Source: Dehalococcoidia bacterium (GTDB taxonomy: Bacteria; Chloroflexota; Dehalococcoidia; Dehalococcoidales; DAOWJH01). Taken from it: a stretch of DNA of 32,895 bases. Below, one piece after another: positions 2,586 to 7,516 of this stretch; positions within the stretch are counted from its first letter, which is position 1, and every line of letters begins with the position of its first letter. The DNA lies in the NCBI GenBank assembly GCA_030640495.1, contig DAOWJH010000086.1, positions 1 through 32,895 on the forward strand, written 5' to 3'. A model generated the notes under the pieces. That model was not told the origin of the DNA, made no database searches, and saw only the letters and a program-made list of their open reading frames with translations. The translations under genes and the position numbers were made by a program.

Positions 2586-3761
2586 ATGAAGTTAGTGGTT
2601 ATAGGCTTTGGGCAATGCGGATGCAGGATTGCCGATGAGTTTGCTCGACTAAATAAGAAAGCACATGGTCAACGTGGGATTGATATAATTATTGGCGCTT
2701 TTGCGATTAACACCGATGCGGCTGATTTAAGTGGGCTATCCAGTATAAGGTCTGATTACCGGCACAGGATTCTCATTGGGGGTCGGAAGACCGGGGGGCA
2801 TGGGGTAGGTAAAATAAATGAACTTGGCGCCGAGATAGCTAAGGAAGATGGCGATAAGGTTATTGATGCCATAAGAGGGACCAGGCGACTCTATGAGTCA
2901 GATGCCTTCTTACTAATAGCCTCTGCTGCTGGTGGCACTGGCTCTGGGGCAATACCAATAATGACGCAATATATAAAAGAGCGCCATATGGATAAACCAG
3001 TATACGACCTTATTGTCTTGCCTTTTGAGCACGAAGAGACAACGGAAGAAAGAGCTATCTATAACACAGCCACATGCATTAAATCTGTCAATTCAATAGC
3101 TGATGCCGTAATTCTGGTGGACAACCAAAGGTATATTAGAAAGAACTCCTCGCTTAGAAGCAACATGGCTAAGATTAACGCCTTGATAGTTGAACCATTC
3201 TATAATCTACTCTGTGCTGGTGAGGAGAAAAAAGCTAAATACATTGGGTCAAAAACCCTTGATGCCGGGGACATAATACAGACTTTAACCGGATGGACAG
3301 CAATAGGCTACGGCAAATCACCGGTACCAATGTTTAATTTGCCCTTTGTCCGAAAGTCTGACTTCAGGAGCAAGAGCACCGAAACCCACAAGGGAACTCA
3401 GACGATGGACGAAGCTATGAGCGAGCTATCAATTGGCTGTAACCCAATTGATGCAAGTCGGGCACTATATCTCCTGTCAGCACCATCCAAGGAAATGAGT
3501 ATGAGCTTGGTTAAGGAACTTGGAGACTATCTAAGAAGTATAGCGCAAAAGGCTATCATAAGGAATGGTGATTATCCCAGGGAAAAAGCCATTGTGGAGG
3601 TTGCTTTAATCCTGTCCGGGCTTAGCGATGTGGAAAAAATCAGGGAATACTATGATAAATCAACGAGCCTCATCCCTGAGTTTGAGAGGAGACGAGAGGA
3701 AATAGAAGGCAGACTTAAGAGTATGGAAGAGGTAGGAAAAGACTTACCGACACTACTGTAG
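2586..3761 (+). CDS. CetZ-type tubulin/FtsZ-superfamily GTPase, paralog A (391 aa)
   Basis: T1 loop GFGQCG; NTDAADL; GHGVG; tubulin-signature T4 GGTGSG (nt 2931-2948); T7 loop LDAGDIIQTL (from nt 3258). The C-terminal domain has RNGDYP...LILSGLSDVEKIREY, which parallels archaeal CetZ (RGGDYP...ILLSGVSNVPRIKEL). I prefer the ATG at 2586 (GAGGTGGG Shine-Dalgarno site just upstream; N-terminus parallels paralog B) over the GTG at 2574 in the ORF track. Confidence 0.8.
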   Translation: MKLVVIGFGQCGCRIADEFARLNKKAHGQRGIDIIIGAFAINTDAADLSGLSSIRSDYRHRILIGGRKTGGHGVGKINELGAEIAKEDGDKVIDAIRGTRRLYESDAFLLIASAAGGTGSGAIPIMTQYIKERHMDKPVYDLIVLPFEHEETTEERAIYNTATCIKSVNSIADAVILVDNQRYIRKNSSLRSNMAKINALIVEPFYNLLCAGEEKKAKYIGSKTLDAGDIIQTLTGWTAIGYGKSPVPMFNLPFVRKSDFRSKSTETHKGTQTMDEAMSELSIGCNPIDASRALYLLSAPSKEMSMSLVKELGDYLRSIAQKAIIRNGDYPREKAIVEVALILSGLSDVEKIREYYDKSTSLIPEFERRREEIEGRLKSMEEVGKDLPTLL

Positions 3762-3830
3762 ACAAAGTAGCAATACTGTGTAAGTACGATTAAACTAAAA
3801 TAATATACTTCTCTAGTATCAAGGTGGAAG

Positions 3831-5003
3831 GTGAAATTACTAGTTATAGGTTGTGGGCAGTGTGGCGGCAGGATTGCCGATGAGTTTGCTCTGCTAAATA
3901 GAAGGGCACATGGTCAGCGTGGAATTGATATAATCACTAATACCCTGGCTGTCAATACCGATGTTGCTGATTTAAGCGGGCTATCCTTTATAAGACCTGA
4001 TTACCAGCACAGAATCCTCATCGGAGGTAGGAAGACTGGTGGTCATGGTGTAGGTAAAATAAATGAACTGGGTTCTGAGATAGCCAAGGAAGATGGCGAC
4101 AAGATTATAGAATGTATTAGAACAACACGGCATCTCCATGAGACAGATGCCTTCCTGCTTATCGCCAGTGCTGCTGGTGGTACCGGCTCAGGGGCAATAC
4201 CAATACTAACGCAATACATAAAAGAGCACTACGGGGAAAAACCATTATATAATCTTATTGTCCTTCCTTTTAAGCATGAAGAGAAAATAGAGGAAAGGAC
4301 TATTTATAATACAGCGACATGTCTCAAATCGGCTTACTTAGTGGCTGACGCCATATTTCTGGTTGATAATCAAAGGTATGTTAGAAAGGATTTCTCGATT
4401 CAGAGCAACCTAGCCAAAATTAACGCCCTAGTAGTTGAGCCGTTCTACAACCTACTTTGCGCTGGTGAGGAGAAAAAGCCTAAATACATTGGGTCAAGGA
4501 TTCTTGATGCCGGAGACATAATACAGACTCTGTCGGGATGGTCAGTAATAGGCTATGGTAAATCGCAAATACCGCTGTTCAAGTTTCCTTTTGGGGCGTC
4601 TAATTTCAGGGAGAAAGCCAGTGAAAGCCAAAAGGGAGTTCAAGTAATGAACGAGGCCATAAACGAATTATCGCTCAAGTGCAATCCCTCAGATACGAAG
4701 CGAGCCCTTTATCTTCTTTCGGCGCCAGCCGAGGAAATGAATATGAGCCTGATTAATGAAATCGGGAATTGCCTAAAACGTATAGCCACAGAGGCTATCA
4801 TAAGGAGCGGCGATTATCCCAGGGAAAAACGCTCGATAGATATCACTGTAATTCTGTCCGAGCTGATTAATGTGGGGAAGGTTATGGAATACTTTACCCA
4901 AGCCATCCTCTATATCTCTTCTTACAAGAAGAGATGGGAGGGGTTAGAGCACGAACATGAAGGAATTGAAGAGGCCTTTAGGGATATACCTTCCCTGCTG
5001 TAA
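3831..5003 (+). CDS. CetZ-type tubulin/FtsZ-superfamily GTPase, paralog B (390 aa)
   Basis: GTG start preceded by AAGGTGGA. Carries the same motifs as paralog A (GCGQCGG, NTDVADL, GGTGSG, LDAGDIIQTL, RSGDYP). By eye it is ~75-85% identical to A over the GTPase domain and lower toward the C-terminus. It lies 69 nt downstream of A on the same strand. Confidence 0.8.
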   Translation: MKLLVIGCGQCGGRIADEFALLNRRAHGQRGIDIITNTLAVNTDVADLSGLSFIRPDYQHRILIGGRKTGGHGVGKINELGSEIAKEDGDKIIECIRTTRHLHETDAFLLIASAAGGTGSGAIPILTQYIKEHYGEKPLYNLIVLPFKHEEKIEERTIYNTATCLKSAYLVADAIFLVDNQRYVRKDFSIQSNLAKINALVVEPFYNLLCAGEEKKPKYIGSRILDAGDIIQTLSGWSVIGYGKSQIPLFKFPFGASNFREKASESQKGVQVMNEAINELSLKCNPSDTKRALYLLSAPAEEMNMSLINEIGNCLKRIATEAIIRSGDYPREKRSIDITVILSELINVGKVMEYFTQAILYISSYKKRWEGLEHEHEGIEEAFRDIPSLL

Positions 5004-5055: not shown

Positions 5056-5577
5056 CTATCTCTTCTCCTTGGAGAAGATTTTCCAAGCTCGCTCTATAGC
5101 CTCGGTGCGAGTTGCCCAAGCTTGGTCTATAGTCTCCTGACGAACTATTAAGGCTTGCCTCACATTCTCATCAACAGTCCTCTTGATTTGCTCTTTAGTT
5201 CGTCTAGATGTTTCTTCGGCTTGTTCTCTCGCTTTCTGATATGCCTTCTCGGCTTGCTGCTCAGCCCCCTCACGAGCCCTTAAGGCTTGTGCTATGGTCT
5301 GCTCACAGGTGCTATTGGCTTGCTGTTCAGCCTCCTTATAGGCTTCCTCCATTTGTTGTTCATTGGCCTTATATGCCTTCGCCACTTCCCTCTCAGCATC
5401 CACATAAGCGGCATAGGCTGATTCAACTCGCCCCAGAACCTCAGCAAGAGGTTCCCTAGCCTGTTCCTGAACCTCAGCAGCAGCTTCTTCCGCCTGTTCT
5501 TGAGCCTCAGTAACGGGTTCTGCCGCCTGCTCTTCAGCTTTTCTATCGGCCTTTTTCTCCAACTCCCTCGGATTCAT
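5056..5577 (-). CDS. Glu/Ala/Gln-rich predicted coiled-coil protein (173 aa), function unknown
   Basis: Uninterrupted ORF with a Shine-Dalgarno-like AGGGGG and its own candidate promoter. Low-complexity helical sequence with recurring AY-x-x-A/EQQ motifs. No transmembrane segment or signal peptide. Coding status is supported mainly by length and start context. Confidence 0.6.
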   Translation of the reverse strand: MNPRELEKKADRKAEEQAAEPVTEAQEQAEEAAAEVQEQAREPLAEVLGRVESAYAAYVDAEREVAKAYKANEQQMEEAYKEAEQQANSTCEQTIAQALRAREGAEQQAEKAYQKAREQAEETSRRTKEQIKRTVDENVRQALIVRQETIDQAWATRTEAIERAWKIFSKEKR

Positions 5578-5686: not shown

Positions 5687-7468
5687 TTATGATTCCTCTT
5701 CTTCATCCTCTTTCGCAGCTTGCTTGGCTTTATTAGCCTCATACATTCTGGCTAAGAACTCCAAGCGACTCTCAATCTTTCCCTTGTGAACCCCTTCCTC
5801 CTTTCTTTTTTCTTTGGCACTAGTTTTCCCAGCCTTACTTATTATTGCTTCCCGGGGTGTTTCTACTGGTGCCTTGGCAATCTCCTTGACCATCTCTCTG
5901 GTTACTTTGTCCGCCGCTTCAGCGCCGCCTATTGCTTCCTCAAATGCTTTTATTGATACCTTGGCAGCCTCTTTGGCAGCTCTCATTGATTGCTCAGCAG
6001 CCTCCCTGGCGGCTCTGGCTGATGCTTCAGCAGCTTCCCTAGCTGATTTACTTGCTTCTTCAGCCCTGGTTATTGCCTCCTGTGATGCCCTTGCCGATGC
6101 CCCAGTAGCCTTTTTGACAGCCCTTATTGATTGCTCAACAGCCTCTTTGGCTGATTCACTTGCCTCCTCAGCCCTGGTTATCGCCTCCTGTGATGCCTTT
6201 GTCGATGCCTCAGCAGCCTCCCTGGCTGATTTACTTACCTCCTCAGCCTTGATTATCGCCTCCTGCGATGCCCTTGCCGATGCCTCAGTAGCCTCCTTAG
6301 CCGATTTACCTGCCTCCTCAGCCCTGGTTATCGCTTCCCGTGATGCCCTTGCTGATGCTTCGGCAGTCTCCCTAGCTGATTTACTTATTTCTTCAGCCCT
6401 GGTTATCGCTTCCTGAGATGCCCTTGCCGATGCCTCGGCAGTCTCCTCGGCTGATTTGCTTATTTCCTCAGCCGTGGTTATTGCTTCCTGTGATGCCCTC
6501 TTTGATTCCTCAATAGTCTCTATAGACAGTTTGCTTATTTCCTCGGCTCTATCTATAGCTTCCTGTGACACTCTCTTTGATTCCTCAGTAGCCCCCCTGG
6601 TAGACTGGATTGTTTCCTCAGCCCGGCCTACTACCTCCTGAGATACCCTTACCGCCTCTTCAGCCGCATCCTTGGCCGATTGAATTGTTTCCTCAGCCTT
6701 GCTTATCGCTTTCTCAAAGGTCTTTGCTGAGGTGCTAGCAGCCTCCTCAGCCGACTTGGTTACTTTATCAGCCTTGCGCACTGCTTCCCGTGATGCTTTC
6801 TTTGATTCCTCAGCAACCTTCTTGGTCGCCTTGCTTACTTCCTCGGCCTCGCTTACTGCTTCCTTGGATACTCTTACTGATTCTTCAGCCGCTCCCTTAG
6901 CCAACTGGCCTACTTCTTCAGCCCGGCTTACCGCCTCCTGGGATACACTCACCGCTTCCTCAGCTGCCGCCTTAGCCAACCGACCTGTTTGCTTAGCCCT
7001 ACTTAACGCCTCCAAGGATATTCTTACCAATTCTTCAGCCGCCGCCTTAGTTGATTGGATTGTTTCCTCAGCTCCGCGTATTGCTTCCACGAATGCTTTC
7101 TTTGATGCCTCAGAGGTCTCCTTAGCTACCCTGTGTGTTTCCTCAGCTTTGCTTAGCGTCTGCTTAAAAGCATCCCTTGACTCCCTAGTAGCTTCCTCGG
7201 TTGCTTTGATTATTTCCTCAGCCCTATGCACCGCTTCCCGCGATGCTCTTTTGGCAGCATTAGCCGCCAGCTTAGCTGCCTTACTTATCTCCTCAGCCTT
7301 GGTTATGGCTTCCTGGGATACTACTATTGAGCCTTCAGCCGCCTGCCTAGCCAACTGGCTAAGTTTCTCAGCCCTAGCCACTGCTTTTTCAAAGGCTCCG
7401 GTATCACCTTCTGTATCCCCTAAGACTTCAAGGGGGACATTACCCAGTTTCTTGGCTTTACTATCCAT
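5687..7468 (-). CDS. Repetitive Ala/Glu/Ser-rich coiled-coil protein (593 aa) built from 25-residue repeats, function unknown
   Basis: Long ORF with no transmembrane segment or signal peptide. The consensus unit SQEAIxRAEExxKxAxExAExSxRA recurs at residues 51, 76, 101 ... 426, exactly 25 aa apart. Acidic C-terminal tail EDEEEES. Confidence 0.7.
   Translation of the reverse strand: MDSKAKKLGNVPLEVLGDTEGDTGAFEKAVARAEKLSQLARQAAEGSIVVSQEAITKAEEISKAAKLAANAAKRASREAVHRAEEIIKATEEATRESRDAFKQTLSKAEETHRVAKETSEASKKAFVEAIRGAEETIQSTKAAAEELVRISLEALSRAKQTGRLAKAAAEEAVSVSQEAVSRAEEVGQLAKGAAEESVRVSKEAVSEAEEVSKATKKVAEESKKASREAVRKADKVTKSAEEAASTSAKTFEKAISKAEETIQSAKDAAEEAVRVSQEVVGRAEETIQSTRGATEESKRVSQEAIDRAEEISKLSIETIEESKRASQEAITTAEEISKSAEETAEASARASQEAITRAEEISKSARETAEASARASREAITRAEEAGKSAKEATEASARASQEAIIKAEEVSKSAREAAEASTKASQEAITRAEEASESAKEAVEQSIRAVKKATGASARASQEAITRAEEASKSAREAAEASARAAREAAEQSMRAAKEAAKVSIKAFEEAIGGAEAADKVTREMVKEIAKAPVETPREAIISKAGKTSAKEKRKEEGVHKGKIESRLEFLARMYEANKAKQAAKEDEEEES
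5936..7318 (-). repeat. In-frame 75-nt (25-codon) tandem repeat array inside the 593-aa gene
   Basis: 16 consecutive units with exact 25-codon spacing, then an 11-codon insertion and ~2 more units. The most similar units span about 6011-6493 (SQEAITRAEE(I/A)SKSARE(T/A)AEASARA). Confidence 0.85.
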
Positions 7469-7487: not shown

Positions 7488-7516
7488 ATTGTATGCTGAG
7501 GCGCTCAATTTTTCAA
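7488..7516 (-). promoter_or_regulatory. Candidate promoter for the 593-aa repeat-protein gene
   Basis: On the minus strand: TTGAAA (7516-7511), 17 nt spacer, TACAAT (7493-7488). It is very close to the start codon at 7468, which implies a short 5' UTR, so confidence is low. Confidence 0.3.

Follow-up and report, generated by a model that had tools for sequence, protein, structure and literature searches.

What might a bacterium gain from a protein of strictly 25-residue repeats whose gene lies next to genes for CetZ-like GTPases of the tubulin/FtsZ family? This question is raised by contig DAOWJH010000086.1 of a Dehalococcoidia bacterium (assembly GCA_030640495.1), the full 32,895 nucleotides (nt) of which we analyzed and here call the window. 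An open reading frame (ORF) at positions 5687–7468 on its minus strand, here the repeat gene, encodes a coiled-coil protein of 593 amino acids (aa), and on the plus strand close to it stand two CetZ-like paralogs, A and B, with a small coiled-coil gene between B and the repeat gene. From gene order across genomes and from the properties of the protein itself, the repeat protein is probably a so far undescribed cytoskeletal partner of CetZ-like B.

Linkage of the repeat gene to CetZ-like paralog B

Whole-genome searches in 61 genomes of the same order, Dehalococcoidales, with Dehalococcoides mccartyi included in the set, revealed homologs of the repeat protein in 38 of them. With a genomic match being called B-type if it scored higher against B than against A, a B-type paralog was present in 30 of the 61 genomes, and in 26 of these 30 the repeat gene was found on the same contig as B, within about 3 kb and in convergent orientation (one of the 26 being a weak and short match). 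In two further B-type genomes (G010 and G012) the B gene and pieces of the repeat gene were split over contig ends. Among the 31 genomes having no B-type gene, 21 gave no repeat match and the other 10 gave weaker matches that were not adjacent, except for a fragment beside an A gene at a contig end (G029); the stronger matches examined were a fusion of the repeat with TPR (G017) and a fragment at a contig end (G025). Fetched CetZ-like loci, a collection that overlaps the 61-genome set, showed the repeat gene directly downstream and convergent in 34–35 of 36–37 B-type loci, as compared to none of 15 loci with A only. The usual layout was B in forward direction, followed by the small coiled-coil gene and the repeat gene in reverse direction and then by A, again forward.

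The linkage extended beyond the order. At the level of the class, CetZ-like genes were present in 36 of 251 sampled Dehalococcoidia genomes, and the repeat gene (E ≤ 1e-15) was found in 13 of these 36 genomes as opposed to 2 of the 215 others, with both of the latter having a different architecture. In family f94, which belongs to another order of the class, and in genus g56, B and the repeat gene were likewise adjacent and convergent.

We also compared the surroundings of the two genes. In D. mccartyi, B and the repeat gene homolog are located about 400 kb away from the A locus, beside recN, and the A locus of that species (eno, an HgdB-like gene, gap, A, three small genes, dnaX, ybaB and recR) is syntenic with the window (L086, G054:C1:434000-445000). 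Unlike in D. mccartyi, B and the two coiled-coil genes of the source window lie between A and dnaX, whereas elsewhere the repeat gene is found between B and A. The pair of B and the repeat gene hence persists through relocation, so that the constant element is the pair and not what surrounds it. That the pair withstands rearrangements and recurs in more than one order is, of the evidence at hand, the strongest for a functional coupling of the two genes.

A rod of 25-residue units

The first-pass annotation of this DNA had described 16 exact 25-residue units starting at residue 51, within a span (5936–7318) that corresponds to residues 51–511 of the 593-aa repeat protein. When the sequence was laid out in rows of 25, the units indeed kept a perfect register without any indel to residue 450, and profile-based tiling furthermore showed that residues 26–50 (FEKAVARAEKLSQLARQAAEGSIVV) match the repeat unit, extending the uninterrupted run to 17 units. 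The 11-residue insert (residues 451–461) and the two additional units said to follow it were also found, but the second of these units is degenerate and comes after yet another insert of 22 residues (487–508), made up of the unit's final 11 residues in duplicate. Self-similarity of the protein peaked at lags of 25, 50 and 75 residues, with 41% identity at lag 25, and Tandem Repeats Finder detected 75-nt arrays in the gene with 81–84% matches. Long antisense ORFs across the repeat gene were dismissed as shadows of the repeat. That the periodicity might not be preserved in orthologs, a concern raised on first pass, was dispelled by finding 25 as the strongest self-similarity lag in 11 of 11 orthologs tested and by its retention in orthologs with as little as about 31% identity, the diverged homolog of D. 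mccartyi among them (L026:1781-3106, 441 aa; top lag 25 and a hydrophobic period of 3.585 residues).

Pooling 200 units from the 11 orthologs, we found apolar residues at unit positions 1 (S/F), 4 (A), 5 (I/V), 8 (A), 11 (I/T/V/A), 12 (S/G), 15 (A), 18 and 19 (A), 22 (S/A) and 25 (A/V), with the remaining positions occupied by Glu, Lys and Arg. The apolar positions are spaced 3-4-3-4-3-4-4, giving a unit of 7+7+11, and form a broad, Ala-rich face covering about 44% of positions. This bore out the earlier reading of 25 as 7+7+11, and so did Fourier-type analysis of hydrophobicity, in which a period of 3.57–3.58 residues (equal to 25/7) dominated over residues 26–500 in all 11 orthologs, at 8–15 times the shuffle maximum. 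The power spectrum of the window protein had a single peak at 3.575 residues, the power of which was 785 while shuffled sequences reached a maximum of 60 ± 12, and one dominant hydrophobic period argues for a single amphipathic stripe that stays in phase over about 475 residues.

Residues 13–533 of the repeat protein (521 residues) are free of proline, and the longest proline-free stretch had a median of 520 aa among 45 ortholog sequences, a few of them duplicates. Where orthologs carry off-register insertions between units, these are mostly 4, 11, 14, 18 or 22 residues long, which are lengths that preserve the coiled-coil phase and thereby favor one continuous helix over a solenoid of helical hairpins. 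A single-chain AlphaFold2 (AF2) model based on a 22-sequence alignment, of low overall confidence (predicted local distance difference test, pLDDT, 51.8; predicted template modelling score, pTM, 0.21), had helices at residues 23–211, 237–368 and 376–529 with short low-confidence breaks between them, followed by a non-helical stretch at 530–553 (pLDDT 29–44) and a separate C-terminal helix at 554–592, the core of which had the highest pLDDT of the model (71–80). A continuous amphipathic helix with a constant period in the range of 3.5–3.67 over a long stretch, being what characterizes a coiled-coil rod, was found here, and the most likely structure of the repeat protein is a single long coiled-coil rod with a weak left-handed twist. 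Assuming a free helix of 3.63 residues per turn in which each residue contributes a rise of 0.148 nm, we calculate a length of about 75 nm for the rod and, for its left-handed supercoil, a pitch of about 33 nm, as compared to about 14.5 nm for heptads. The term 'nearly untwisted' used in the first-pass annotation was accordingly too strong, as 3.57 residues per turn still gives a left-handed supercoil.

Such a rod would pair with one or more copies of itself by means of its continuous apolar stripe, having Ala/Ser at the center and Ile/Val at the flanks. In several histidine kinases (P0003–P0006 and P0071, metagenome proteins), the PAS and HisKA domains are joined by a linker of about 325 residues that is formed by the same 25-mer array. 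The PAS-HisKA linker is a parallel two-stranded coiled coil, and by this analogy a parallel dimer is plausible also for the rod of the repeat protein; with its broad Ala/Ser stripe, the rod could also pack in antiparallel or higher-order fashion. The array moreover makes up the first 550 residues of a protein of 779 aa that ends in TPR repeats (L027:1151-3490, G017:C8). In a metagenome protein of 499 aa (P0002), four to five N-terminal 25-residue units were combined with an unrelated Cys/His/Gly-rich domain of about 360 aa, which may reflect either a genuine fusion or a chimeric gene prediction. Within this group, the 25-residue array behaves as a portable rod module.

A rod of this type could also belong to a self-assembling, intermediate-filament-like coiled-coil-rich protein (CCRP) that would form filaments or a meshwork independently of B, with the adjacency to B then reflecting a common cell-shape theme or merely inherited synteny. 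Crescentin and the Streptomyces proteins FilP and Scy, which are presumed to act in cell shape, share with the repeat protein a long coiled-coil rod, short non-helical ends and the lack of an enzymatic domain, and for Scy/FilP the likeness includes a regular non-heptad periodicity reducing supercoiling; variation in repeat number, here between 14 and 25 units, would also be in line with a filament former. The repeat of Scy/FilP has 51 residues, with a period near 3.64. Their non-heptad periodicity was reportedly described by Walshaw et al. in 2010 (listed in PMC6599971). The repeat protein differs from crescentin, FilP and Scy in its 25-residue unit, its period of 3.57, its Ala/Ser-rich core and its position adjoining a tubulin-family gene. 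Pfam and NCBIfam scans, in which no profile–profile comparison was made, gave no similarity to intermediate-filament-like CCRP families, with the intermediate filament and other filament families of Pfam giving no match, and a core dominated by Ala and Ser has little hydrophobicity for a protein that would form filaments by itself. The adjacency is furthermore specific for B over two orders and survives relocation of the pair, and the repeat gene, aside from the weaker non-adjacent matches, is missing from genomes without B. We consequently find a filament former independent of B unlikely.

The repeat protein family and its conserved ends

The Pfam and NCBIfam scans of the window protein were blank, for enzymatic as for any other domains, and profile searches of Pfam, NCBIfam and PDB gave no family match, which agreed with the first-pass annotation on both the lack of an enzymatic domain and the lack of a named family. 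We found no natural relative in PDB. Sequence and profile searches there picked up only helical bundles designed de novo and a coiled coil from a chemoreceptor, matches that tell little. A word-indexed homolog search yielded seven matches, including one true homolog fragment, several histidine kinases with the array and two other proteins with units, and an exhaustive search of 1.84 billion representatives yielded 92 matches, mostly fragments and none below 1e-30, of which the long ones (DUF4116, TPR and ankyrin proteins) look spurious. Exact-sequence look-ups of the repeat protein and its D. mccartyi homolog gave no match, and a further homolog search yielded a single unnamed protein. As judged from these searches, the family is small, unnamed and found only in Dehalococcoidia, and in the source genome (58% complete) both the repeat and the C-terminal motif described below were confined to the repeat gene.

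Some orthologs did display weak similarity to Phasin_2 (PF09361; 11 of 22 orthologs at E ≤ 0.1, best 2e-11) and isolated matches to Apolipoprotein and ApoLp-III. Together with the broad Ala-rich apolar face, this could suggest an amphipathic-helix coat or protectant, being phasin-, apolipoprotein-, LEA- or GvpC-like, that covers a hydrophobic surface or stabilizes macromolecules and is unrelated to tubulins; Phasin_2, apolipoprotein and LEA proteins indeed have similar Ala/Glu/Lys-rich amphipathic helices. The window protein, however, scored only 14.8 bits against Phasin_2 (E = 0.035), with the gathering cut-off being 24.9, several close orthologs had no Phasin_2 match at all, and among eight orthologs scanned singly only two exceeded the cut-off (L035 through summed weak stretches and L061 through two passing stretches). 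The Apolipoprotein match reached 21 bits as opposed to a cut-off of 90. Matches to Phasin_2, BORCS6 and Apolipoprotein among the 22 aligned orthologs, being weak and inconsistent, were attributed to composition. PhaC_N (PF07167) was found in none of the 61 related genomes, with a control genome being positive and class III/IV synthases not searched separately, and GvpA was found in six of the 61 (PF00741, above cut-off in G028, G029, G032, G037 and G051 and marginal in G010), uncorrelated with the repeat gene and for the most part in genomes other than those carrying it; we rejected the phasin and GvpC readings on the basis of these distributions. The GvpC repeat is also 33 residues long in contrast to 25 here, and the period of 3.57 is not the 3.67 of 11-mer lipid-binding repeats. 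As such a coat would in addition leave the linkage to B unexplained, we consider it very improbable.

It was also clear that conservation within the family, the orthologs of which have 488–800 aa and 14–25 units, is concentrated at the protein ends. The ratio of non-synonymous to synonymous substitution rates (dN/dS) was about 0.27 for residues 1–555 when compared with the 61%-identical ortholog L077, and for the C-terminal motif of the same pair, after realignment, it was about 0.04 (dN 0.07, dS 1.61); for residues 1–50 of the repeat protein it was 0.19. Such low values argue that the repeat gene is protein-coding and under purifying selection. The C-termini of orthologs have a consensus of a Lys-rich linker, (K)IE(S/A)RL(E/D/N)FLA(R/K)MY and an acidic tail, with R568, L569, L572 and M575 being the invariant non-Ala columns in 22 sequences, and of 34 full-length orthologs, 31 matched the motif IExRLxFLARMY by regular expression and three had near-variants of it. 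According to these alignments, the C-terminal helix is the best-conserved element of the family. At the opposite end, the head and unit 1 make up a conserved block (..D.E.D...FEKAVARAE.LS) having A33, A40 and A43 invariant and A29, A31, E34 and L36 at least 90% conserved.

The statement that the protein has neither a transmembrane (TM) segment nor a signal peptide held, with a highest 19-residue Kyte–Doolittle mean of 0.46 and no signal-peptide-type hydrophobic stretch seen at the N-terminus. The protein is acidic (isoelectric point, pI, 5.4) and contains 135 Ala, 109 Glu, 64 Ser, 62 Lys and 43 Arg, with no Cys and no Trp. The best explanation of these sequence features is a cytoplasmic structural protein having a short conserved head, a helical rod of about 510 residues, a flexible Lys-rich linker, an amphipathic helix and an acidic tail.

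Conserved ends held apart by a rod that keeps only its pattern, over a loosely constrained length of 488–800 aa, would also suit a tethering or adaptor protein, by which CetZ-like filaments or some other structure would be linked to a cargo (chromosome, membrane or envelope, for instance), with the rod as a distance-setting spacer and in likeness to TubR/TubY with TubZ. The basic linker preceding the amphipathic C-terminal helix fits this possibility, as do the DNA-metabolism neighbors in some genomes (dnaX-ybaB-recR in the window and recN in D. mccartyi), but those neighbors are not conserved, the commonest layout having A beyond the repeat gene, and neither a DNA-binding nor a membrane domain was detected. 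The acidic tail behind the amphipathic helix argues against binding to anionic membranes, and with this tail and no TM segment we also found membrane anchoring by way of the C-terminal helix unlikely. A tether of this kind is, in our view, distinctly unlikely, and a partnership of the repeat protein with CetZ-like B remains the reading that we prefer.

As for the evolution of the repeats, the C-terminal units (nt 6011–6493) had been described as nearly identical at the DNA level, which they are not: the six units share 75–87% DNA identity with each other, as compared to 50–73% for other units. Their identity to the positional counterparts in the closest ortholog is nevertheless lower than their mutual identity, at 65–80%, whereas the N-terminal units 26, 51, 76, 201 and 276 are most similar to their positional orthologs. 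C-terminal units that are closer to each other than to their positional orthologs do support the proposed local homogenization or recent duplication, and by this comparison the homogenization is real but moderate. The inserts are found at equal places in the ortholog, indicating that the overall architecture is stable.

Two further observations concern relatives of the repeat protein. In a large subclade of orthologs (650–800 aa; L034–L084), one conserved proline is located about 110 residues into the rod (at about 105–116, ..PKEAAEA..), where it may serve as a hinge; the window protein does not have this proline. D. mccartyi also encodes two adjacent Ala-rich coiled-coil proteins of 843 and 487 aa (L029:609-3140 and 3282-4745; G054:C1) with a common N-terminal motif and a C-terminal TM anchor, which match our query weakly and make up a separate, tail-anchored family.

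The locus and a putative role with CetZ-like B

Table 1. Positions and supporting evidence for the features of the repeat gene and neighboring genes in the window
Feature	Coordinates	Strand	Evidence or remark
Whole ORF, 25-residue-repeat coiled-coil protein, 593 aa	5687..7468	-	dN/dS ~0.27 (residues 1-555 vs L077)
N-terminal head, residues 1-25, acidic	7394..7468	-	Ortholog N-termini, column conservation
17 consecutive 25-residue units, residues 26-450, zero indels	6119..7393	-	Row layout and profile-based tiling
Hendecad insert, 11 residues, 451-461, equal to the last 11 positions of a unit	6086..6118	-	Tiling; ortholog L077 has an insert at the equal position
Unit 462-486, insert 487-508 (22 = 2x11), degenerate unit 509-533; end of proline-free rod	5870..6085	-	Tiling, proline positions
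Block of six similar units, residues 326-450 and 462-486	6011..6493	-	Unit-to-unit DNA identity, Tandem Repeats Finder
Lys-rich linker with prolines, residues 534-560, predicted disordered	5789..5869	-	AF2; K-rich linkers in orthologs too
Conserved C-terminal amphipathic helix HKGKIESRLEFLARMYEANK, residues 561-580	5729..5788	-	Ortholog conservation, dN/dS, AF2
Acidic C-terminal tail AKQAAKEDEEEES, residues 581-593	5690..5728	-	Ortholog C-termini
Sigma-70-like promoter match TTGAAA-17-TACAAT, 5' of ORF	7488..7516	-	Consensus match only
CetZ-like paralog A, tail ..EEVGKDLPTLL	2586..3761	+	PF00091 and PF21011; many genomes have A but no repeat gene
CetZ-like tubulin/FtsZ-family GTPase paralog B, tail ..EEAFRDIPSLL	3831..5003	+	PF00091 6.6e-32, PF21011 (CetZ_C) 5.4e-16
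Small acidic coiled-coil protein, 173 aa, C-terminal motif W..R.E.I...W.IFSKE	5056..5577	-	Downstream of and co-directional with repeat gene

In the window (Table 1), B converges on the 173-aa coiled-coil gene and the repeat gene, with dnaX-ybaB-recR diverging on the far side, and a ribosome-binding-site-like sequence (AGGGAAGG) is found 8–13 nt upstream of the ATG of the repeat gene. In most loci the 173-aa gene separates B from the repeat gene; D. mccartyi does not have it, and neither do several loci in which B directly abuts the repeat gene. In the window the 173-aa gene has a promoter-like sequence of its own (TTGACT-17-TATACT at 5650-5622), and its product carries a conserved C-terminal double-Trp motif (AW..R.E.I..AWKIFSKE). 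Both CetZ-like paralogs, together with at least 70 orthologs, end with KD(I/L)P(S/T)LL (window 3741-3758 and 4983-5000), thus resembling the C-terminal peptide of the FtsZ of the same organism (..EELDVPSFLRRP..; G000:C46:4044-5187). The C-terminal peptide of FtsZ is a hub for partner proteins, and the CetZ-like proteins may, to judge from their tails, share FtsZ-tail-binding partners. A likeness between the A-type tails and the C-terminal motif of the repeat protein was considered too weak to use.

In our proposal, the repeat protein and CetZ-like B would work together, in many cases joined by the small coiled-coil protein with the Trp motif, in an internal cytoskeleton of the Dehalococcoidia, which are said to have no cell wall. 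Filaments of CetZ-like B would be scaffolded, cross-linked or spaced by the rod, with the C-terminal helix, and perhaps the head, as a docking site either for CetZ-like filaments or for a common partner. Direct binding to CetZ-like B filaments is a tentative element of this proposal. With similar reserve we suggest that such binding might occur through the C-terminal helix and/or the head, and that the repeat protein could together with the small protein form a composite cytoskeleton setting disc shape or division geometry. The oligomeric state, the physical binding to B and the role in cell shape or division are features that we infer.

Several observations weigh against this proposal. Two B-type genomes, estimated to be 84% (G006) and 75% (G015) complete, showed no repeat gene, and the genomes compared are relatives, so that the counts of adjacency are not independent events. 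B and the repeat gene are convergent and hence not co-transcribed. Both the rod, with a net charge of -13, and the tail are acidic, and CetZ-like B is near neutral (pI 6.5); eukaryotic binders of microtubules are typically basic. One 25-residue unit spans about 3.7 nm and the subunit spacing in protofilaments of tubulin/FtsZ-family proteins is about 4.0–4.4 nm, which makes a ruler having one unit per subunit on a straight protofilament unlikely. The low overall confidence of the AF2 model also counts on this side.

Comparison with known systems gave further likenesses. The FtsZ accessories ZapA/ZapB, EzrA and SepF, BtubC of the BtubAB system and TubR/TubY of the TubZ system are, like the repeat protein, non-enzymatic, helical or coiled-coil proteins encoded beside a tubulin-superfamily gene and having short conserved segments as likely contacts, and it is a conserved linkage with a tubulin-superfamily gene, typical of a tubulin/FtsZ accessory, that we found for the repeat gene. 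It differs from all of these in showing no homology to them and in having a bacterial CetZ-like protein as its putative partner. Tropomyosin, nebulin, GvpC and SF-assemblin/beta-giardin resemble the repeat protein in their strict repeat length over hundreds of residues and phase-preserving indels, and the restriction of indels to phase-preserving lengths suggests selection on geometry. Compared with such ruler proteins, the repeat protein has a unit of about 3.7 nm that is unlike the tubulin-family spacing, a repeat number that varies between 14 and 25 and no link to gvp genes. From Phasin_2, apolipoprotein and LEA proteins it is set apart by scoring below cut-off, by the absence of PhaC_N in the 61 relatives, by its period of 3.57 versus 3.67 and by its genomic context.

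In haloarchaea, it is CetZ tubulins that govern cell shape (PMC10869688). Bacterial CetZ-like proteins have been noted only in passing, with no function or partners given, in one phylogenetic survey, by Santana-Molina et al. (PMC9871819), whose own CetZ_C hidden Markov model matches bacterial CetZ-like proteins and the passages of which consulted here do not mention coiled-coil neighbors of the Dehalococcoidia genes. Kruse et al. (2021) detected a 'tubulin/GTPase btf_0551' in D. mccartyi BTF08, with a higher abundance in pure cultures, where the cells were disc-shaped, than in co-cultures, where they were barrel-shaped (PMC8163811). By gene order btf_0551 is paralog A, with the second FtsZ about 50 kb away, and it follows that a CetZ-like protein is expressed, while this says nothing about the repeat gene; the hypothetical protein near btf_0551 in the same study (PMC8163811) is a different small protein and hence not informative in that regard either. 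The D. mccartyi genome has four tubulin-superfamily genes, being two FtsZ-like genes, CetZ-like A and CetZ-like B (G054:C1 228901, 439396, 489191, 842506). In the papers searched we found no relevant 25-residue coiled-coil repeat, no coiled-coil partner of CetZ and no partner of any kind for the bacterial CetZ-like proteins.

The novel features of the repeat protein, as far as its sequence and genomic context tell, are the strict 25-residue periodicity and the conserved pairing with a bacterial CetZ-like paralog, on the theme of bacterial coiled-coil cytoskeletal or accessory proteins, with the function being what we infer from them. It provides a clean natural case of strict 25-residue (7+7+11) periodicity over about 500 residues, which is relevant to coiled-coil structural biology and design. 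Should the proposed role be true, the repeat protein would be the first dedicated partner of a CetZ-type tubulin that is 'MAP-like', i.e. resembling microtubule-associated proteins, with a 25-residue (7/7/11) lattice tuned to filament geometry. A coiled-coil protein tied to one CetZ-like paralog gives a concrete and testable handle on the function of tubulins in bacteria, and the family extends into Dehalococcoides, a genus that is cultivable and relevant to bioremediation.

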